A program made the translations under genes and the position numbers. Positions 3,168 to 51,422 of a DNA stretch of 64,000 bases are shown here, in pieces (within the stretch, counting starts at the first letter, position 1; every line of letters begins with the position of its first letter). The notes beneath the pieces are model-generated. The model was not told the origin of the DNA and did no database searches. It saw only the letters and a program-made list of their open reading frames with translations. The DNA comes from a virus (taxonomy: Duplodnaviria > Caudoviricetes): the IMG/VR virus record IMGVR_UViG_3300028048_000004, positions 6,958 through 70,957 of that record; one strand, given 5' to 3'.

Positions 3168-3200
3168 CTGCCCCAGATGGACTCGAACCATCAAATGCAG
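3168..3200 (-). pseudogene. Orphan 3' half of a tRNA-Gln gene
   Basis: CTG CATTT GATGG TTCGAGT CCATC TGGGGCA G: T-arm plus acceptor strand pairing 7/7 with the 5' half at 3926-3932. Confidence 0.8.
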
Positions 3201-3219
3201 AACATATTCACAATTTTAA

Positions 3220-3291
3220 CAGCGGCAGTAGGAATCGAACCTACATTGTCAGGGTCAAAGCCTGCTGTACTAACCTTTATACTATACCGCT
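3220..3291 (-). tRNA. tRNA-Gln(UUG), intact, no encoded CCA
   Basis: Acceptor AGCGGTA/TGCCGCT; anticodon arm GCAGG-CTTTGAC-CCTGA; T-arm GTAGG-TTCGATT-CCTAC. Confidence 0.85.
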
Positions 3292-3297
3292 ATAAAA

Positions 3298-3747
3298 TTA
3301 CTTTCTGTTTCCAAATTTATCAATGAACTGGTTACCATTAAAACCTCGTAACTTTGCACTAGCACTACACTTTTGACAAAAATCTTTCGACATTTTTCTT
3401 CCCTTATTTACTGGTCCATGTTCCTTAACGTAATTTGCTAATCGCATATTACCTTTACTATGCAAACTTGAATGTTCACATCTTGATAATATCTGTAAAT
3501 TATTCAGTGCATTATTATGTGTATTTTCATCTATATGATGTACAATACAACCACGTGTGTAATCCTGCAAATACTTCATAGCAACAACTGTATGAACACC
3601 AAAAATATGTCTTTTATGATTAGTGTCAAATAATAATACTTGTAAATATTTATTAGACTTAAATGGTTTAATTTCTACTCCATTTTTATACACTCTACCA
3701 AGTTCATCAACATCATAATTTGGAAACATTTCTTGAAAGTTATACAT
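3298..3747 (-). CDS. Free-standing HNH homing endonuclease
   Basis: VHTVVAMKYL...VHHIDENTHNNALNNLQILSRCEHSSLH (HNH_3 type) with basic C-terminal tail. Confidence 0.85.
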   Translation of the reverse strand: MYNFQEMFPNYDVDELGRVYKNGVEIKPFKSNKYLQVLLFDTNHKRHIFGVHTVVAMKYLQDYTRGCIVHHIDENTHNNALNNLQILSRCEHSSLHSKGNMRLANYVKEHGPVNKGRKMSKDFCQKCSASAKLRGFNGNQFIDKFGNRK

Positions 3748-3868
3748 AATACCACTCCTTAAAATATAAAAACGCTATTGGAGTGCATGGTGCGAGCATA
3801 CACTTTTAGACCAATAGCGTTCTTAGCATAATTTAGTGGTGTAAAGTCTCGCACTCTTTACGAGTGAT
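3748..3868 (-). ncRNA. Structured kissing-loop leader RNA, copy 1
   Basis: Hairpin GTAAAG-aGTGCGAGa-CTTTAC; long hairpin CGCTATTGG..GTGTATG-CTCGCAC-CATGCAC..CCAATAGCG followed by T-tract and RBS; the two loops are exactly complementary. Confidence 0.7.
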
Positions 3869-3897
3869 ATTATAACATAACTTTATTAAATTGTAAA
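3869..3897 (-). promoter_or_regulatory. Sigma70-type promoter of the HNH cassette
   Basis: TTTACA-17-TATAAT. Confidence 0.8.
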
Positions 3898-3898
3898 T

Positions 3899-3932
3899 AA
3901 GTGCTGTGCCTTAACCATTTGGCGATGGGGCA
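3899..3932 (-). pseudogene. Orphan 5' half of a tRNA-Gln gene
   Basis: TGCCCCA TC GCC AAATGGT TAAGGC A CAGCA CTT, breaking in the anticodon loop; U1 start typical of tRNA-Gln. Confidence 0.8.
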
Positions 3933-3934
3933 AA

Positions 3935-4570
3935 AATTGTGGCAGAACCATATTCTTTCAAGCACGTTCACTTATTGGCTACTTTGCAATTCCAAACTAA
4001 CTTACTTACTGGAATATCCAATTAGTATATTTTCTACCTAATCCAACGGAGCGACCAACTCTTTGTATATAGTAGGAAACGGTAACAGTTTCAATCCAGT
4101 CTTTGATTAGGTGGGGGTATTCAAGCGTTCAATCTCCTTTTTCATTGCATACTCCAAACTTTCAGCCACCACAAACGGGAGCAGAAGGATTCGAACCTTC
4201 GTTTTCTGATTGATGGTTACCAGACTGTTGCCTTAGACATACTCTAACAAGCACATCACTCTTGTACCCTTTGTCTACACTTACACTCCCATATTGACCG
4301 CCCCTGTCTCGCAAACTCAGGCGGTCATTTCTGACTAAATAATCAGAAAAACTGGCGGCGGTCTTGGCCTTCGACCGCACTTTAATGCTCATTAACAAAC
4401 CAGTCTAAACTGCATGATATATCTACCATGACTAACTTCCAATCAGGTTTTCGTATACTCATATTGGAGTCTTTGCATACTAAGGTCTGCCTTTTCGTTA
4501 ATAACTCATCTGAAATTATTAACTACGCATATCTGCACTATGATAATAGAGGTATTACCAGACCACTCCT
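3935..4570 (-). ncRNA. Candidate large structured ncRNA within the tRNA island
   Basis: Many nested helices and no credible CDS; see findings. Confidence 0.55.
4176..4290 (-). ncRNA. 115-nt tRNA-like domain with an expanded D-arm region
   Basis: Acceptor GGGAGTG/TGCTCCC; canonical T-arm GAAGG-TTCGAAT-CCTTC; no 7-nt anticodon loop. Confidence 0.55.
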
Positions 4571-4572
4571 TA

Positions 4573-4680
4573 TTATGCGGGTAAGGATTTGCACCTTACA
4601 TGAACTGCATTTTCCAAGGCTCTGTCGACTCGACCTATCAGTTCTTATGCTTAAGCGTCTACCTATTCCGCCACCGCATA
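4573..4680 (-). ncRNA. tRNA-Leu-like RNA with non-canonical anticodon arm, copy 1
   Basis: Acceptor TATGCGG/CCGCATA + A73; D-arm GCGGAATAGGTAGACGC; T-arm TAAGG-TGCAAAT-CCTTA. Confidence 0.65.
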
Positions 4681-4737
4681 ACGTAGTCTTTCCCACTGTC
4701 AGACAAAGTCCTCCATTCTTGCACAACGAATGGGGAA

Positions 4738-4811
4738 TCGGGAATACTGGACTTGAACCAGTGACACATGGCTTATAAGGCCACCGCTCTAACCAACTGA
4801 GCTAATTCCCG
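4738..4811 (-). tRNA. tRNA-Ile(UAU)
   Basis: Acceptor CGGGAAT/ATTCCCG; D-arm GCTC/GAGC; anticodon arm GTGGC-CTTATAA-GCCAT; T-arm ACTGG-TTCAAGT-CCAGT. Confidence 0.9.
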
Positions 4812-4909
4812 TGAGTGCGTCTCAGGGGATAGAGGAGGACGCACTGTTGCGGTTCATATCTGCACCCCACAGTAACAGATTGTGCGTTGCTACCACAACA
4901 AAACGCTAA

Positions 4910-4993
4910 TGCGGGTAGTGGGAGTTGAACCCACACGATATTACTATCAGAGGATTTTAAGTCCCCTACGTCTGCCTATTCCGTCATACCCGC
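4910..4993 (-). tRNA. tRNA-Leu(UAA)
   Basis: Acceptor GCGGGTA/TACCCGC + A73; anticodon arm GGGGA-CTTAAAA-TCCTC; long variable arm; T-loop TTCAACT. Confidence 0.9.
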
Positions 4994-5002
4994 CGAACTT
5001 AC

Positions 5003-5167
5003 TTAAAGAATATCGAAAATATAATCATCTTCTAATCCTAAATAATCTTGAATTGCTTCATCGTTTCCGTCCATCAACGACTCTAAGCACTGATCAATTA
5101 AATCATTGGCTTCTTCTTTTGTCATACCATCCCGCTTCACAAGAATATTGACAACATCTTTTCTCAT
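5003..5167 (-). CDS. Small acidic hypothetical protein
   Basis: Start at MRKDVV after GGAGG RBS; ATGA overlap with the upstream gene. Confidence 0.6.
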   Translation of the reverse strand: MRKDVVNILVKRDGMTKEEANDLIDQCLESLMDGNDEAIQDYLGLEDDYIFDIL

Positions 5168-5709
5168 GCTACTTCCTCCTTCTCTGTAATAGCGGACCTG
5201 ATGATCCAACCTTCCCAAACTACATCAACAAGTTTCTGTTTAATTCCGTCTACATCGTTAATATCTAAATCCATAATGAACGGAACTTTTGTAATGCATT
5301 CCGGGCCAATGCCATATTTCTGAGAAATAGGATTTGTCAATGTTCTTCCACACCGCATACACCGAATAACTGGCTCTGCTTGTCCATGTAACTTCATGTA
5401 TACCATTCCACGGGTTTCTTTTTCAATAGTACCAACCATTGTTCTCAATGGCATTGGATTGTTATTATTGAACTTCGACATGAAGTCAAATCCGGGACTA
5501 GCATATTCTGTCATATACTTCTTGACTGTAACACGATACTGTGTCTTGTCGTTTAACGTGTCTACCACGCTCTTAATTGCGTTTTTAGTGTTTGACTGTA
5601 AAATAATACAATCGTTATCTGAAAGTGTCTTAAAATCGAAATTAGACGCTTCTACAGCAGTGTCGTTTATGAGTATTTCACCTTTCCAGTCTTTTAAGAG
5701 ATCTAACAT
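5164..5709 (-). CDS. Hypothetical protein with zinc-ribbon motif (DUF6011-like)
   Basis: CMRCGRTLTNPISQKYGIGPEC. Confidence 0.6.
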   Translation of the reverse strand: MLDLLKDWKGEILINDTAVEASNFDFKTLSDNDCIILQSNTKNAIKSVVDTLNDKTQYRVTVKKYMTEYASPGFDFMSKFNNNNPMPLRTMVGTIEKETRGMVYMKLHGQAEPVIRCMRCGRTLTNPISQKYGIGPECITKVPFIMDLDINDVDGIKQKLVDVVWEGWIIRSAITEKEEVA

Positions 5710-5746
5710 ACTTTAATTGTTTTCTCCTTTCTTGAGTTTTTATGAA

Positions 5747-5851
5747 TGATGCGGGTAAGGATTTGCACCTTACATACAAAGACTCTTGTCTAAGCACCAT
5801 CCTATGTATACAACACTCGGACGGCTCGGCTACCTATTTCGTCACCGCATC
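5747..5851 (-). ncRNA. tRNA-Leu-like RNA with non-canonical anticodon arm, copy 2
   Basis: Acceptor GATGCGG/CCGCATC + A73; same T-arm sequence as copy 1; different middle. Confidence 0.65.
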
Positions 5852-5883
5852 GACTTGTAAACCCCATATCGTTTACATTATGT

Positions 5884-5912
5884 AGTATAACATTTATTTC
5901 TATATTTGTCAA
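5884..5912 (-). promoter_or_regulatory. Promoter driving the tRNA/ncRNA island
   Basis: TTGACA-17-TATACT. Confidence 0.75.
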
Positions 5913-5921
5913 CAACTATTT

Positions 5922-6962
5922 TTAATTTTCTTTCATAACTTTATCTACCAACTTTTCCACACAATTTAATAGTGTCTGATCTGTTTTTAATTTCTCATAT
6001 ACACTGGATTGTCCATGTATCTTACCTTCCAAAAGTTCTCCAGTCTCTATATCTACTATATCAAACCACGCACCAGATTTTTTCACAATGTCATATTTAA
6101 TTGCCACTTCTATTAAATCACGCAGATAATCAATACCAATCTCATAATTAATGGTATAAAAACCAGTACGTCTAACAGGTGGACAGGTTTTGTTTTTGGT
6201 CATGGACATCATAACTATATTACCAACCGGACTCTCCGCAGACCGTGTTAATTCGTTACCCTTATCATCTATGAACTTGCCACGACTAAACTGCATACGA
6301 ACAGCACAAAAATGTTTCCACGCTTTGCCGCCGGGTGTAACTACTCCACCCCATGTACTGTTTAAGTCTTCTCGTATCTGATTGATGCCGATCCCGGTAC
6401 ACTTATGTCTCTGCATAAGCATTTCTATCTTTTTACCAAACAATGTGAGAGACTTCGCTATACCACCATATGTCTTGTCTTCCATTGTCTTTTCAAGTTC
6501 CTGACTAGACATTAATGCACCTATACTGTCAAGTACCCATAATCCTACTTCCCCGGTATCTACGCTGTCACAGATAATTTGAAAAATCTCTTCCGCAGAT
6601 TGAGATTTTGGCTGTAAAATGTACATCTTATCTACATCTACACCGATTTTCTTTGCCCACTCAACATCCAACGTGTTTTCAGCATCTATGTACAAAACAT
6701 CCCTATCATCCCCGGATTTCTGATAGTTTGCAACAATATCTAGCGCAGTTGTTGTTTTCCCACCATGCTCTTCACCGTAAAATTCTGTTATCTTACCTAT
6801 AGGAATGCCGCCGAACGTACAATAGTTCATTCTAGGAGAAGTAAACGGGATACGTTTATAAGAAAATTCACTTAAACCCTGTGTAATGATTTCTTCTTTA
6901 AACCGTTTGTTTGCATTTTTCATAATCTCATCAAGTTTTAATCCCATAAGTAATTCCCTCAT
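5922..6962 (-). CDS. recA: RecA-family recombinase
   Basis: GGIPIGKITEFYGEEHGGKTT; YIDAENTLD; VLDSIGAL; INQIRE; TPGGKAWKH. Confidence 0.95.
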   Translation of the reverse strand: MRELLMGLKLDEIMKNANKRFKEEIITQGLSEFSYKRIPFTSPRMNYCTFGGIPIGKITEFYGEEHGGKTTTALDIVANYQKSGDDRDVLYIDAENTLDVEWAKKIGVDVDKMYILQPKSQSAEEIFQIICDSVDTGEVGLWVLDSIGALMSSQELEKTMEDKTYGGIAKSLTLFGKKIEMLMQRHKCTGIGINQIREDLNSTWGGVVTPGGKAWKHFCAVRMQFSRGKFIDDKGNELTRSAESPVGNIVMMSMTKNKTCPPVRRTGFYTINYEIGIDYLRDLIEVAIKYDIVKKSGAWFDIVDIETGELLEGKIHGQSSVYEKLKTDQTLLNCVEKLVDKVMKEN

Positions 6963-7197
6963 CTAAAATTCTTTTAACAACCTGTTCTGCACGATTTTTA
7001 CCAATACCTTTGACAGACAATAAAATCTCCATAAGATGTTCCTCTGTCAAAGATGCTACGCAATCCTGTGTAGCGTACCTTACACCATCGTCATAAATCG
7101 AACCGCATAAATCCATCAACCAGTGATTAAAACCGTTTACAGACAATTTATGCACCTTTTTATAAGTAGCAAAGTCTATAGGTTTTGCTCTACTCAT
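6931..7197 (-). CDS. Hypothetical protein with a helix-hairpin-helix motif
   Basis: LLSVKGIGKNRAEQV. Confidence 0.55.
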   Translation of the reverse strand: MSRAKPIDFATYKKVHKLSVNGFNHWLMDLCGSIYDDGVRYATQDCVASLTEEHLMEILLSVKGIGKNRAEQVVKRILDEGITYGIKT

Positions 7198-7201
7198 GAT
7201 T

Positions 7202-7837
7202 TCACCCCACTATATCGGCAACATATGGTAATCCACGTAAAATCTCCACAAAGTCTCTCCACTCATCCAACTTATGTCCAGTACGCTCTTTTATAATCTT
7301 GAACACTGTTTCATAAGACATACAAACTGTTCTTCGCTGATTGTAAGAGGATGGAAGTAACTGAATTAACTGCCACCAGTATTCTTTATTCTTTGTACTC
7401 AAATATTGATTCCTATACTGATTCATCAAATTTATAACACCATTAAGAATAATAATAGATGTCCCTTTTATTAAATGCTCATGACTAAAATCGTCTAATT
7501 CAAATTCTTTGGCGGCAATCTTATGCATAGTAGAACATGATACCTGTGATTTACCTACAGTATAACGATCCATTTCTTTCCACCAGTATAACGGCGCTGT
7601 AATATCCATTGATACTTGTATCATTCTAGCATATGTCCTATGCTCTGTTCCTGCTTTATATAATCTTCTCATGAGATTTAAATCATTTTCTCCAATTCTT
7701 GCTTGGATTTCTGGGCTTCCGTTTGCACCTGTCACAACAAAAATACTATCACTTTTATCCCAACTATTCATAGGATTGCGAAGTCCTCGGATTGCTCCTT
7801 CAAAATTAGATACTTCAACGTGTTCCACTCTTATCAT
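7202..7837 (-). CDS. ThyX-like (Thy1 fold) protein
   Basis: AIRGLRNPMNSWDKSDS, HRTYARMIQVSMDITAPLYWWKEMDRY, LLPSSYNQRR; canonical RHRxxS motif not present. Confidence 0.6.
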   Translation of the reverse strand: MIRVEHVEVSNFEGAIRGLRNPMNSWDKSDSIFVVTGANGSPEIQARIGENDLNLMRRLYKAGTEHRTYARMIQVSMDITAPLYWWKEMDRYTVGKSQVSCSTMHKIAAKEFELDDFSHEHLIKGTSIIILNGVINLMNQYRNQYLSTKNKEYWWQLIQLLPSSYNQRRTVCMSYETVFKIIKERTGHKLDEWRDFVEILRGLPYVADIVG

Positions 7838-8369
7838 ACTTCTTCACCTCAAATCTTCCATATTGATTACCAATAAATTTTTGCAGACCGTTTTCAAATG
7901 AATGTAATGTATTATCACTATAAGTACACCACTCTAAATTCTCCGCCCTGTTATCATTTTTAATACCATTCTTATGATTAACACACGGTAAATCATTTGG
8001 GTTTGGAATAAAGCACTTTGCTATAACTCTATGTGACTGCTCTGTACTATTATCACCTGTGTTTATCCATAAATAATCATTGTTATCTGTTCTTTGTTTC
8101 ATTATTTTACAATTACGAATAGTAATAAACTGTCCTGTTGAAAAAACTAATATTCCCTTATACAATACGGCATCATCTAATTTCAAATTATTAATTTTGC
8201 AACATTCTTTTATCTTTTGAATTTTTCTATAACTTAATTCCAAAATAGCATCAAATTCTGTTGCAACTGTTATATAAGGTTTTGAATGTAACTCATATCC
8301 ATATTTGTTCTTATGATAACCTTTATTTTGATAATGATTAAATAGATATTTTAACAACTCTAATTCCAT
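7815..8369 (-). CDS. Free-standing HNH homing endonuclease
   Basis: HRVIAKCFIPNPNDLPCVNHKNGIKNDNRAENLEWCT. Confidence 0.9.
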   Translation of the reverse strand: MELELLKYLFNHYQNKGYHKNKYGYELHSKPYITVATEFDAILELSYRKIQKIKECCKINNLKLDDAVLYKGILVFSTGQFITIRNCKIMKQRTDNNDYLWINTGDNSTEQSHRVIAKCFIPNPNDLPCVNHKNGIKNDNRAENLEWCTYSDNTLHSFENGLQKFIGNQYGRFEVKKYDKSGTR

Positions 8370-8422
8370 GCCACGAATAGCATGTTTAAATTCCCATACA
8401 TCTATTTTTCTACTTTAATCAT
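8367..8422 (-). pseudogene. Frameshifted remnant of the original thyX-like 5' end
   Basis: ATG overlapping the mazG stop reads MIKVEK*; the shifted frame reads IDVWEFKHAIRGM, homologous to MIRVEHVEVSNFEGAIRGL of 7202-7837. Confidence 0.8.
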
Positions 8423-8751
8423 ATATCTCCTTTCTTTCTATGCAAACTATGTTCTGCATCAAATCCTTCTGGATATCTAGCCAGCAACTTATCAATATTC
8501 ATCTGCATTATATCTTCTAACTTCCAATTAAAAGCAGTACAATATTCGGCTATAAACCAAAGTAAGTCTCCCAACTCTTTTTGTGCATGAACTTTATCCC
8601 ATTTATGTCCTTGATATAATTTCTGATAAATACCGTGTAATTCACCAATTTCAGAAATCATACCGTGTAAGGCATGAAATTCCTTTTCTTGCACATTAAA
8701 TTCATCTGGTATCGTTCGACTTGCTAATGCTTGATATTCATTTCCTGTCAC
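8419..8751 (-). CDS. mazG: MazG-like nucleotide pyrophosphohydrolase
   Basis: ISEIGEL...KELGDLLWFIA...NIDKLLARYP. Confidence 0.85.
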   Translation of the reverse strand: MTGNEYQALASRTIPDEFNVQEKEFHALHGMISEIGELHGIYQKLYQGHKWDKVHAQKELGDLLWFIAEYCTAFNWKLEDIMQMNIDKLLARYPEGFDAEHSLHRKKGDI

Positions 8752-9278
8752 TTACCACTACCTCCGATTCTTGTTAATTCATATTCTGCCATTCTACGTG
8801 ATAATACTTTTTTACAGCTTGATAAAAGTTCCTGTGCGTTTTCTACCTTTGCTTTCATAGTTTTATAGGCTCTTGTATAAGACGATGAAATTATGTATTC
8901 TTCCTGACTTGCTAATTCTGCAAGCGAATCTTTATCTGCCACAGTTCCTTTTTCCTGACTTGCTCTAGCAGTATGATACATTTCTTTATATACTGCTTTT
9001 GCTATATCATCACGAATGCCTAACTGTTCACACATTCCACCAGCAAAATAAATATATGTGGAAAGATTAAGACAAAAATCATCAAGTTCATCTGTTGTTG
9101 GCGGATTCTCTCCATCTTTAAGACAGTCCTTAATAAACAGCACATACTTATCTAATGATGATACGTATGGAGATATGATTGAACTAACAATATCATCAAT
9201 TATTAAAGAATTTTTTTCTACATTCTCCCTAATACTGTTTATATTATCCATATTTAATTCATCAAGTGACATTTTCAT
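8748..9278 (-). CDS. Helical protein, possibly a UvsY-like recombination mediator
   Basis: Start at MKMSLD; C-terminal coiled coil GTVADKDSLAE...KAKVENAQELLSSCKKVL; located between recU and recA. Confidence 0.45.
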   Translation of the reverse strand: MKMSLDELNMDNINSIRENVEKNSLIIDDIVSSIISPYVSSLDKYVLFIKDCLKDGENPPTTDELDDFCLNLSTYIYFAGGMCEQLGIRDDIAKAVYKEMYHTARASQEKGTVADKDSLAELASQEEYIISSSYTRAYKTMKAKVENAQELLSSCKKVLSRRMAEYELTRIGGSGK

Positions 9279-9807
9279 TTTTACGCTTTTCCTCCCATCT
9301 ACGCTTTTGACTTTCAGACATTTTTCGTTTAGTCTCCTCCGAAGCAGGGCCGTACACTCTATTTCTCGCCTCCTTTTTACCATCACTTATTAACTTTTTA
9401 CGTTTAACCCAATTTTTCTTAACGCCATCTATTCTATGTGCTGTTGCATTATTATAATGATTATTGTAATAGTAAGAACACCACTCTAAATTATTTATGG
9501 AATTATTTGAAGGATTTTCATCTTTGTGATTAACACACGGTAAATTATCTGGATTTGGAATAAATGCTTCGGCTACTAAACGATGCACAAGTTTAAATTT
9601 ACTATCTACACCTTTTTGTAATCGAACTCTATAATAACCATTTCCTTGATTTACAGGTGTTAAAATTTTCTCACTGACTGGATATTTGTTATATCCATGA
9701 CTGCGATTTTTTCTAATTATAGTTCGTCTACAACTTTTTACATTACCTAAATTACTTACTTGATACAAGCCCTCATATCCAATAACATCTTTCCAAACTT
9801 CTTGCAT
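9262..9807 (-). CDS. NUMOD4-HNH homing endonuclease
   Basis: WKDVIGYEGLYQVSNLGNVKS (NUMOD4); VHRLVAEAFIPNPDNLPCVNHKDENPSNNSINNLEWC. Confidence 0.9.
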   Translation of the reverse strand: MQEVWKDVIGYEGLYQVSNLGNVKSCRRTIIRKNRSHGYNKYPVSEKILTPVNQGNGYYRVRLQKGVDSKFKLVHRLVAEAFIPNPDNLPCVNHKDENPSNNSINNLEWCSYYYNNHYNNATAHRIDGVKKNWVKRKKLISDGKKEARNRVYGPASEETKRKMSESQKRRWEEKRKNENVT

Positions 9808-9927
9808 AATAACCTCCTAAAATATAAAAACGCTTGTGGAGTGTATGGGTCGAGCATACACTTTTAGACCACAAGCGATTTTAACACTTTTAGAATTTGT
9901 TGTAAGTCTCGACCTCTTACAGAGGTT
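9808..9927 (-). ncRNA. Structured kissing-loop leader RNA, copy 2
   Basis: GTAAG-aGGTCGAGa-CTTAC and CGCTTGTGG..GTGTATG-CTCGACC-CATACAC..CCACAAGCG-TTTTT; homologous to 3748-3868 with compensatory changes. Confidence 0.7.
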
Positions 9928-9956
9928 ATTATACTATATTATTTAAAATGTGTAAA
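9928..9956 (-). promoter_or_regulatory. Sigma70-type promoter of the NUMOD4-HNH cassette
   Basis: TTTACA-17-TATAAT, overlapping the recU 3' end. Confidence 0.8.
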
Positions 9957-10445
9957 GAACTCTTCCATCCAATAATCAAAAAACACTCGTTTCTTTTTCC
10001 CCAATATTTTTATTGTTTCTATTTCTAACTCACCAGATGGGTAATACCCTAAAAACTGATTTTCATAGTCAAATCTTATACTCTTCTTACCCTCCAGTCT
10101 CTCTGCTTCTAAAATCTGTATAGGAATGAATAGTGTTGTATCTCTCTGCGTCCACCAACATATTACTCCTGCAAACACGCCTTCTATCTGAGACTTTTCC
10201 AACAACCCTTTCCACTGTGTATCTGTAATATTACTGAATGGTAATCTATTACCATGAACAGATTTACACTCGATATAATACTCATACGGTTCTTTATACA
10301 CAATGAAGTCGCAGATGTTCTGACTTCCTTTAAATCCGGTTGTTTGATCATGTAATCTGTCTATAGATACACCGGGAACTTTTTCAAAACATTGTCGCAC
10401 CACATCTTCAAATTGTTTTCCTCTATTTATACTCATACACATCAC
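9939..10445 (-). CDS. recU: RecU-like Holliday junction resolvase
   Basis: NRGKQFE...SQNICDFIVY...YIECKS...FSNITDTQWKGL. Confidence 0.8.
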   Translation of the reverse strand: MMCMSINRGKQFEDVVRQCFEKVPGVSIDRLHDQTTGFKGSQNICDFIVYKEPYEYYIECKSVHGNRLPFSNITDTQWKGLLEKSQIEGVFAGVICWWTQRDTTLFIPIQILEAERLEGKKSIRFDYENQFLGYYPSGELEIETIKILGKKKRVFFDYWMEEFFTHFK

Positions 10446-10681
10446 CCATGCAAATCACTATTAAGAATTGTCAAGATATCTTGTATCGGCACCTGTATAA
10501 TAAATCCATTATCTCCCTTACACTCCAACTGCATATATCCACCATCATTTTGCAACTCACAGCGAAGCGGTTTTGCCCCATCTGTTTTTGGATCAACCAA
10601 TAACGCTATTGATATCATATTAACCATCCTTTTTGCACTGTGTTTTATACATACAGTAAGAACACGCTTTTTTGCTGACAT
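10442..10681 (-). CDS. Hypothetical protein
   Basis: ORF coupled to recU; true start probably internal. Confidence 0.45.
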   Translation of the reverse strand: MSAKKRVLTVCIKHSAKRMVNMISIALLVDPKTDGAKPLRCELQNDGGYMQLECKGDNGFIIQVPIQDILTILNSDLHG

Positions 10682-22166: not shown

Positions 22167-22195
22167 ATTATAATACATATTTCTATATATGTCAA
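22167..22195 (-). promoter_or_regulatory. Sigma70-type promoter
   Basis: TTGACA-17-TATAAT. Confidence 0.8.
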
Positions 22196-22212
22196 CTACT
22201 ATTTTAACTTAT

Positions 22213-28754: not shown

Positions 28755-28783
28755 ATTTTACTATATACGCTCATTTGTGTCAA
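28755..28783 (-). promoter_or_regulatory. Promoter of the replication operon
   Basis: TTGACA-17-TAAAAT. Confidence 0.7.
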
Positions 28784-29011
28784 CTATTTTTTACTAAAGG
28801 ACTTTAAGATATCTTCGATTTGTGCATCTACTTCTGTATTGCATGTGTCCCAGAGTTTCTTTCTTTCCTCTTCTACTACATCATCCGGGTCAAGTGACCG
28901 CTCTTCACAGTATTCAACCGTGTAAAAAGAGTCTGCTACTTTTACGGATGCCCTACTCGTTGCCCGAATTGTCGTTATCGTCATTCCTACTCCTCCACAT
29001 TGCATATCCAA
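28784..29011 (-). CDS. Hypothetical protein
   Basis: ORF track; probable start MTITTI. Confidence 0.55.
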   Translation of the reverse strand: MDMQCGGVGMTITTIRATSRASVKVADSFYTVEYCEERSLDPDDVVEEERKKLWDTCNTEVDAQIEDILKSFSKK

Positions 29012-51229: not shown

Positions 51230-51422
51230 GTTACAATCTCCTTTACATTCATTTATATCTGCTTAACTTGTAAATCCGCAGTCGCAGTTCTGCGTTTAGA
51301 ATGTGCATGGGTTTAAATGTCTTCATGCTAGACTTACAATAATGTGGGCATATAGAAACCATATACCCACATTACCAAGGAGGACTAAGAATGAAAAAAG
51401 ACTTCACCTAATCCATACATAC

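Follow-up and report, generated by a model that had tools for sequence, protein, structure and literature searches.

The gene of an HNH endonuclease in a Caudoviricetes genome (IMG/VR record IMGVR_UViG_3300028048_000004; 70,957 bp, with terminal repeats) is preceded by a promoter and by two hairpins, the loops of which are exact complements. Do the two loops pair within a single leader RNA, and what would such a leader do for a nuclease gene? Expression of a homing-endonuclease gene must neither poison the carrier nor disturb the invaded operon. Two solutions are known, mostly from T4-like coliphages and gene by gene: sequestration of the ribosome-binding site, and weak termination. We analysed a 64,000-nt stretch of the phage genome (positions 6,958 to 70,957 of the record, hereafter the window) and the relatives of the leader in other genomes.

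Two copies of the leader in one phage genome

The window contains two copies of the leader, spanning 3745-3897 and 9805-9956 (Table 1). Both are located on the minus strand, as are the genes that surround them, and both feature, in the same order, all the elements that the initial annotation had described: a promoter close to consensus, a 5' hairpin (A) of low stability, a long hairpin (B) with a terminator-like U-tract, and 7-nt complementarity of the two loops. The length of the leader is approximately 115 nt. Both leaders fold much more stably than shuffled sequences, with z = -5.0 in copy 1 and z = -4.6 in copy 2. In copy 1, hairpin A begins approximately 7-8 nt past the -10 box, at the predicted 5' end of the transcript, and is weak when taken alone (-2.5 kcal/mol). 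Paired as isolated strands, the two loops would form a duplex with a dG of -11.8 kcal/mol in copy 1 and -12.0 kcal/mol in copy 2. A search of the window with a covariance model of the leader (R1) detected these two copies only. A third HNH_3 gene (7815-8369, minus strand), located approximately 50 nt past a MazG-like gene, has neither a leader nor a promoter of its own.

The leader had not been recognised as a named riboswitch, and database searches agree. None of the Rfam 15 families, among them HEARO, riboswitches and self-cleaving ribozymes, matched, at either gathering or permissive thresholds, the window copies or members of the three subfamilies described below. The sole signal over the leaders was noise (mir-455, 19 bits versus a threshold of 70). 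Elsewhere in the window, a GP20-a RNA motif (Rfam RF02991, 67.6 bits) maps to 51234-51337 on the minus strand.

Table 1 Features of the two leader copies and of the copy-1 surroundings (window coordinates; dG in kcal/mol)
Feature	Position	Strand	Remarks
Copy 1			
Promoter	3869-3897	-	-35 TTTACA 3892-3897; 17-nt spacer; TGn-extended -10 TATAAT 3869-3874
P1, 5' strand (-10 box and 7-nt discriminator)	3862-3874	-	Only in RNAs initiated upstream
Hairpin A	3841-3861	-	6-bp stem, 9-nt loop; kissing heptad GUGCGAG 3848-3854
AU-rich linker, 21 nt	3820-3840	-	Across members, sequence variable, length 15-26 nt
Hairpin B	3773-3819	-	dG -19.5
Hairpin B, lower stem	3811-3819 / 3773-3781	-	9 bp, GC-based
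Hairpin B, A-rich bulge	3804-3810	-	7 nt
Hairpin B, upper stem	3797-3803 / 3783-3789	-	7 bp
Hairpin B, kissing loop	3790-3796	-	CUCGCAC, 7 nt
U-tract	3761-3772	-	Immediately 3' of hairpin B; intrinsic-terminator signature
Translation initiation region	3745-3760	-	SD 3755-3760; ATG 3745-3747
P1, 3' strand	3745-3757	-	Within initiation region
HNH_3 endonuclease gene	3298-3747	-	149 aa; Pfam PF13392; PHROG HNH endonuclease families
Apparent tRNA 5' half	3899-3932	-	Flanks cassette
Apparent tRNA 3' half	3168-3200	-	Flanks cassette
tRNA-Gln, intact	3219-3292		5 nt past HNH stop codon
Copy 2			
Promoter	9928-9956	-	-35 TTTACA 9951-9956; -10 TATAAT 9928-9933; 11/12 match
P1, 5' strand	9921-9933	-	13-bp duplex with 9805-9818, dG -14.9
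Hairpin A	9902-9920	-	5-bp stem; kissing heptad GGUCGAG 9908-9914
Hairpin B	9831-9877	-	dG -21.4
Hairpin B, lower stem	9869-9877 / 9831-9839	-	Compensatory changes relative to copy 1
Hairpin B, bulge	9862-9868	-	
Hairpin B, upper stem	9855-9861 / 9841-9847	-	
Hairpin B, loop	9848-9854	-	CUCGACC
U-tract and initiation region	9805-9830	-	U-tract 9819-9830; SD 9813-9818; ATG 9805-9807
NUMOD4 and HNH_3 endonuclease gene	9262-9807	-	181 aa; Pfam PF07463, PF13392

Relatives and subfamilies of the leader

Approximately 27 instances of the leader, corresponding to 16 distinct backbones, were found in phage contigs and metagenome-assembled genomes (MAGs). Instances were gathered by scanning collections of viral, metagenome and genome sequences for exact words and patterns, from loci derived from endonuclease proteins, and by screening with model R1. 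The last approach, which the initial annotation had proposed, added to the collection. Megablast searches of the INPHARED phages with the region revealed no near-identical relative. Since R1 detected no further members among 80 endonuclease-relative loci searched with default filters, or among 72 of them searched filter-free, the leader family is narrow. Loose DNA pattern matches were mostly due to chance and were discarded by R1; matches of the L217 type correspond to a coding start on the opposite strand, and those in L219, L242, L244, L245 and L250 are fortuitous.

Leaders fall into three subfamilies and one outlier. Subfamily I includes both window copies, the L004/L007/L204/L202 set, L006, L005, L199, L203, L036 and L226. 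Subfamily II includes L109, the L228 group, L246/L248, L247 and L249. Subfamily III (L221, L238 and L243) features a Bacteroidetes-type TAnnTTTG promoter and no SD sequence. The outlier, L111, has the same architecture, and its homology to the others is uncertain. Members were assigned by automatic parsing combined with reading of the sequences by eye, and the automatic parse is suboptimal for hairpin A and/or the lower stem of hairpin B in L246, L247, L243, L221 and L111. Measured from the base of hairpin A, the start codon is 109-116 nt away in members of subfamilies I and II, versus 94-95 nt in those of subfamily III. L036 is a 75-kb contig (JBGUIU010000309.1) binned as Paludibacteraceae, in which the SD and promoter signals accompanying a subfamily I leader are Firmicutes-style; possibly, this is a misbinned phage contig.

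The two loops covary

Six kissing codes were identified over the 16 backbones. The loop A/loop B pairs are GUGCGAG/CUCGCAC, GGUCGAG/CUCGACC, GGGUAG/CUACCC, GUGUCAG/CUGACAC, GUACGAG/CUCGUAC and GUCGCA/UGCGAC, and the two loops are perfectly complementary in every instance. Codes and backbones are not tied to each other: one code is found on differing backbones, and similar backbones carry differing codes. In an alignment of 15 sequences (A4), double changes occur in four of the seven pairs of the kissing helix, one-sided changes in none, and 99% of the cells are paired, the sole exception being an alignment gap in L109. Sliding the register lowers pairing to 22-50% in the same alignment. None of 500 shuffles, in which the tested structure comprised the kissing helix and the inner upper stem of hairpin B, matched the observed percentage of paired cells, the cells changed on both sides or the covariation score. 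Strict criteria, requiring two hairpins whose loops are complementary over at least 6 nt, retrieved 9 of 851 control segments (1%). Given this rate and the maintenance of six paired codes in 16 backbones, the complementarity is not due to chance, and the loop-loop pairing predicted by the initial annotation is borne out.

The stems vary to a different extent. The stem of hairpin A and the lower stem of hairpin B have unrelated sequences in different subfamilies and retain pairing; within the close family, three pairs of the lower stem show double changes. The inner 5 bp of the upper stem of hairpin B are invariant in 15 backbones. Such invariance suggests a sequence-specific constraint (protein, RNA polymerase or tertiary contacts) that lies outside the model proposed below, and an additional partner.

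The YUNR-type U-turn loop motif is a marker of fast RNA-RNA kissing. Loop B, read by eye, begins with C-U-N-purine, a YUNR-type start, in five of the six codes. The presence of a fast-pairing motif suggests that the decision is made while transcription proceeds.

Comparison of the sequences thus establishes the fold and the kiss, together with two points described in the following section, namely the association with endonuclease genes and the membership of the leader in a cassette.

The leader is part of a mobile endonuclease cassette

Every member of the family is located directly upstream of an endonuclease gene. Five types of endonuclease are represented overall. Most members precede NUMOD4 and HNH_3 proteins, and copy 1 precedes a protein with HNH_3 alone. 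The cargo is a GIY-YIG protein, which also matches PHROG homing-endonuclease families, in L203, a phrog_374 HNH protein in L228 and a phrog_2340 endonuclease in L238; for L036, L243, L246, L247 and L249, the cargo was judged by eye from the protein N-termini only.

Leaders are inserted at no fewer than four sites. The copy-2 site provides a comparison of filled and empty alleles. In three alleles lacking the endonuclease (L208, L212 and L216), the leader and the promoter are also missing, and the RecU-like gene overlaps the next gene. Promoter, leader and nuclease gene therefore form a single inserted cassette. The presence or absence of this unit between conserved neighbours is the pattern of a free-standing homing-endonuclease cassette, which would home by site-specific cleavage. 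The junction 3' of the RecU-like gene is an insertion hot spot.

The copy-1 cassette is inserted in a different context, being flanked by what appear to be the two halves of a tRNA gene, with an intact tRNA-Gln gene nearby (Table 1). In L115, a homolog of the copy-1 HNH protein (55% identity) is also encoded after a tRNA 5' fragment, but has no leader. Within the tRNA island, approximately 800 nt (3935-4737, minus strand) contain no credible ORF and carry tRNA-like fragments, including a weak tRNA match at 4179-4244 (16.6 bits). A 30-nt repeat is common to 4572-4601 and 5746-5775 (97% identity).

Two further observations concern related loci. In L207, L209, L210, L211 and L215, varied small ORFs (just after 1960-2000) replace the endonuclease cassette. 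Other NUMOD4-HNH genes, found in L117/L118 (~1010-1200), L139 (~1110-1200) and L145 (~1130-1190), have unrelated leaders composed of a promoter and a 5' hairpin, the loop of which is complementary to a hairpin loop at or near the SD sequence.

Promoter and terminator signals

Promoters of subfamilies I and II feature a TTGACA-like hexamer, a 17-nt spacer and TGnTATAAT. The copy-1 promoter (11/12 match) is one of three equal-best promoter-like sites in the 3200-10500 interval of the window, and its TGn-preceded -10 box is shared by L004/L007, in which the flanking context differs. The copy-2 promoter spacer contains the stop codon of the upstream RecU-like gene. The promoter of subfamily III is TAnnTTTG. 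Hairpin A follows the end of the promoter by approximately 0-8 nt in subfamilies I and II and in L111, and by 13-14 nt in L221 and L243. The phage's own promoters (2413-2442, 22171-22200, 28759-28788 and 5884-5912, minus strand) have a common AGTTGACA -35 region and an AT-rich spacer (repeat family D1), which the copy-2 promoter spacer resembles.

Hairpin B has the anatomy of an intrinsic terminator. Its base is CGC/GCG, and it is followed by five U's and then by AUAUUUU. Across copies, dG ranges from -19 to -21 kcal/mol and the base of the stem is GC-rich; the tail of every member of subfamilies I and II opens with a U run. A simple terminator scan skipped hairpin B because of its internal bulge. 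From these signals we infer promoter activity, the transcription start and termination at hairpin B. Folding of the segments located 5' of the 3' arm of B revealed no antiterminator helix conserved across subfamilies. At the copy-2 site, no separate promoter is evident for the phage genes located downstream; strong constitutive termination at this site would be costly to the phage.

The -10 box pairs with the start codon in subfamily I

The strongest regulatory pairing in the leader is one that the initial annotation missed. In subfamily I, the -10 hexamer and the 7-nt discriminator form 13 contiguous base pairs (P1) with the 3' part of the SD sequence, the spacer and the start codon. P1 stops exactly where the base of hairpin A begins. 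The dG of the duplex is -13.8 kcal/mol in copy 1 (13-nt strands, 3862-3874 with 3745-3757), versus about -5 kcal/mol for shuffled strands. When flanking bases are included, values range from -12 to -19 kcal/mol in subfamily I, and from -6 to -7 kcal/mol in shuffled controls. Compensatory variants were found in eight backbones, as exemplified by the pairs AUCACUC/GAGUGGU, AUUACUC/GAGUAGU and AACCUCU/AGGAGGUU; where GUG replaces AUG as the start codon, pairing is kept by a G-U wobble. P1 was not found in subfamilies II and III.

An RNA initiated 7-8 nt past the -10 box lacks the 5' strand of P1. Two kinds of transcripts may therefore be compared. In subfamily I, the predicted unpaired probability of the initiation region is 0.02-0.21 in read-through RNA versus 0.30-0.58 in promoter-initiated RNA; mean values are 0.16 versus 0.56 in copy 1, and 0.02 versus 0.39 in copy 2. 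On the basis of these predictions, we infer an effect of P1 on translation: RNAs reading through from upstream carry the 5' strand of P1 and should not be translatable, and translation would be confined to RNAs initiated at the cassette promoter.

The 5' strand of P1 also bears on hairpin A, which is weak in subfamily I (-1.2 to -2.5 kcal/mol). Here, hairpin A is predicted to represent 73-93% of the ensemble in promoter-initiated RNA, and 0-2% (47% in L203) when 60 nt of upstream RNA are added. In the predicted folds, suppression in the extended RNA is due to pairing of the P1 strand with the 5' half of hairpin A. The two-state switch previously proposed, in which CACUC pairs with GAGUG and excludes hairpin A, is thus supported by ensemble predictions in subfamily I, where the pairing covaries in most members (CCUCU/AGAGG in copy 2) and is reduced to 3 bp in L203 and L036. 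It does not extend to subfamilies II and III, in which the switch is missing and hairpin A is strong in both RNA contexts. Modelling makes the switch plausible for subfamily I, rather than as part of the universal core.

A proposed portable attenuator for a toxic nuclease

We propose that the leader controls expression in cis within a mobile, free-standing homing-endonuclease cassette, as a portable, insulating attenuator for a toxic nuclease. The explanation as a whole, which draws on sequence comparison, is in our opinion moderately probable. The promoter, fitted to the host, would move along with the nuclease gene. Hairpin A would be the extreme 5' end of RNAs begun at this promoter. Hairpin B and the U-tract would act as an intrinsic terminator, such that only a fraction of the transcripts gets to the nuclease gene, and the 6-7-bp kiss between loops A and B would turn the leader into one compact pseudoknotted fold. 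In subfamily I, read-through RNAs would close a three-way junction (P1, A and B) and would not be translated, whereas cassette-promoter RNAs, which lack the 5' strand of P1, would be translatable. The net outcome would be low nuclease expression, insulated from the transcription of neighbouring genes. An attenuator limiting a toxic nuclease was one of the roles suggested in the initial annotation, and it is the best-supported reading, the 5' terminator of T4 mobE being a direct precedent (PMC2790892).

P1 is missing in subfamilies II and III, and therefore cannot explain a kiss that is universally conserved. A plain terminator requires neither hairpin A nor a kiss, and no conserved antiterminator was found. 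Our preferred guess is that the kiss is a fast-forming clamp, which would fix hairpin A and set or gate the efficiency of terminator B. In subfamily I, formation of the kiss would have to await the release of hairpin A from the upstream strand.

Two additional candidates were discarded. An extended A:B duplex spreading from the kiss is possible in subfamilies I and II, is absent in subfamily III, and is less stable than the kissing state. A leader mini-ORF of seven codons (NUG to a UAA located in the bulge of B) is open in several members of subfamily I; it has no SD sequence, and no start codon in L226.

A bolder extension of the proposed module, which we regard as speculative, is that the leader is a self-contained RNA device reading where a transcript began. 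Only RNA from the cassette promoter would present hairpin A, the A-B kiss would decide between termination and read-through, and the six orthogonal codes would be determinants of specificity or incompatibility between co-resident cassettes. If true, such a device would be a protein-free, ligand-free and host-independent insulator of transcription, moved by selfish nuclease genes from phages of one bacterial phylum to those of another.

Alternative explanations

The ~105-nt terminated RNA may itself be a product of the cassette. Taken further, this short, kiss-closed RNA, extending from the promoter to the U-tract, could be the main product and act in trans, the nuclease being made only by leaky read-through. 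Possible roles would be an incompatibility or dosage signal between cassettes of the same code, or a stable decoy. A near-consensus promoter followed by a canonical terminator is indeed the anatomy of a small-RNA gene, and the six mutually orthogonal codes, two of which distinguish the copies in this genome, recall the incompatibility loops of plasmid antisense RNAs; the YUNR-type start of loop B in most codes and the invariant upper stem of hairpin B fit as well. Yet the leader is always found at a fixed distance directly before the start codon of an endonuclease, and P1 links the RNA to that codon in subfamily I, which favours action in cis. Moreover, the two loops satisfy each other within one molecule, so that little of their surface is free for partners in trans; the linker lacks conservation, and targets are not known. 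We consider a trans-acting RNA unlikely as the main function.

Slightly less likely still is a conditional attenuator, in which the choice between termination and read-through would depend on recognition of the A-B kissing complex by a ligand, by a protein of host or phage origin, or by RNA polymerase itself (cf. HK022 put RNA). In favour of this reading, the leader adjoins a terminator and lies directly 3' of a promoter. The three-way junction with kissing loops formed in the presence of P1 resembles purine aptamers, cobalamin riboswitches pair a kissing loop with an expression-platform hairpin, and the invariant upper stem and A-rich bulge of hairpin B suggest a specific recognition surface. 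However, neither the junction nor the linker is conserved, which leaves no candidate ligand pocket, no alternative antiterminator helix was found, and no Rfam riboswitch matched. The occurrence of cassettes in phages of two bacterial phyla also argues against a host-specific factor.

Alternatively, the kissing pseudoknot could be a 5' stabiliser, protecting the endonuclease mRNA from 5'-end-dependent decay (RNase J1, RNase E, RppH); hairpin B would then be structural, and the U-rich tail a mere AU-rich translation enhancer. This would suit a compact, pseudoknotted fold with hairpin A at the predicted 5' end and the initiation region immediately 3' of the structure. We hold it to be improbable: a U run abuts a GC-rich stem base in all members of subfamilies I and II, a terminator signature that goes beyond an AU-rich leader, and homing endonucleases are typically repressed rather than boosted (PMC2790892, PMC3014915).

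Finally, although the two heptads form an inverted repeat in the DNA, approximately 55-65 bp apart, it is highly improbable that they act at the DNA level (e.g., as inverted protein-binding sites) or arose by chance in AT-rich phage sequence, as they are placed exactly in the loops of two hairpins with independently covarying stems, all six codes are complementary with no one-sided change, only 1% of the control segments show the same pattern, and the fold z is about -5 versus shuffled sequence.

Comparison with known systems

One close parallel to the cis-acting module proposed here is a logic used for homing-endonuclease genes. In T4 gene e, I-TevI and Aeh1 mobE, the promoter is located inside a hairpin that sequesters the ribosome-binding site (PMC3014915). 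The leader shares with these systems a strand that hides the ribosome-binding site and lies upstream of the promoter start, such that read-through RNA would be silent and promoter RNA translated. A strand complementary to SD and AUG, upstream of the start and in a helix maintained by selection, is found in subfamily I only, in which the effect on translation is a model prediction. In contrast to the T4-type hairpins, the helix of the leader is long-range, with strands ~115 nt apart, closes a three-way junction and uses the -10 box itself as 5' strand; the promoter belongs to the housekeeping-sigma type and not to the T4 late promoters; and a terminator and a kissing pair are located between the helix strands.

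T4 mobE, in turn, has a 5' intrinsic terminator that limits the HNH transcript and occurs only with the endonuclease gene (PMC2790892). The putative terminator of the leader is likewise tied to homing-endonuclease genes, the transcripts of which it would limit. In mobE, which lacks a dedicated promoter, the terminator is a simple hairpin within the coding sequence; in the leader, by contrast, the terminator is located 3' of the cassette's own promoter, and its loop is paired to a 5' hairpin.

Intramolecular loop-loop contacts are also found in cobalamin (L5-L13) and purine (L2-L3) riboswitches. Such a contact links an upstream hairpin to a hairpin of the expression platform, as in the leader, which with P1 is similarly a three-way junction with kissing loops. 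Riboswitches differ in that the leader has no conserved ligand pocket (the 15-26-nt linker varies) and no Rfam match, and its kiss is a full Watson-Crick helix of 6-7 bp, the sequence of which is free to vary.

ColE1 RNAI/RNAII, CopA/CopT and par of pAD1 form loop-loop helices of 6-7 nt, with a YUNR-like loop start and with variants acting as specificity codes; in par of pAD1, the terminator loop is the contact point. Helix length, loop start, terminator-loop contact and codes are all shared with the leader. In these antisense systems, however, pairing occurs in trans between partners derived from the same DNA, and complementarity is automatic. The loops of the leader are separate sites of one RNA and must co-evolve.

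The initial annotation had also likened the leader to HEARO and to the omega RNA of IscB, which are structured RNAs adjoining an HNH-domain gene. This comparison fails. Endonucleases of five unrelated types, GIY-YIG among them, use the same leader, which rules out a role as a cofactor of the HNH protein; it is an upstream mRNA leader and not a guide RNA, and has no Rfam HEARO match.

The strict kissing pattern was found in 6 of 84 upstream regions, versus 9 of 851 control segments. Leaders of the kissing or anti-SD type may have evolved more than once in association with homing-endonuclease genes.

The principles underlying the leader are already known. Their combination was found neither in Rfam nor in the literature searched; the motif may be listed, unnamed, in a 2023 catalogue of phage structured RNAs (PMC10690425). 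The combination consists in the joint occurrence of a 5' hairpin that kisses the loop of a terminator in six codes, of a -10 box used as an anti-start-codon strand, and of five nuclease families in phages of two phyla. For phage genomics, the leader marks mobile nuclease cassettes and their boundaries. For RNA biology, it provides a clean natural example of loops that kiss within one molecule, in six codes, and is a candidate ligand-free insulator of transcription and translation. Compared with the solutions known from T4-like phages, the leader would pack both, together with a promoter and a covarying kissing pseudoknot, in a compact gene-borne module, which has been reused by five nuclease families and refitted, with another promoter type and without an SD sequence, for a second bacterial phylum.
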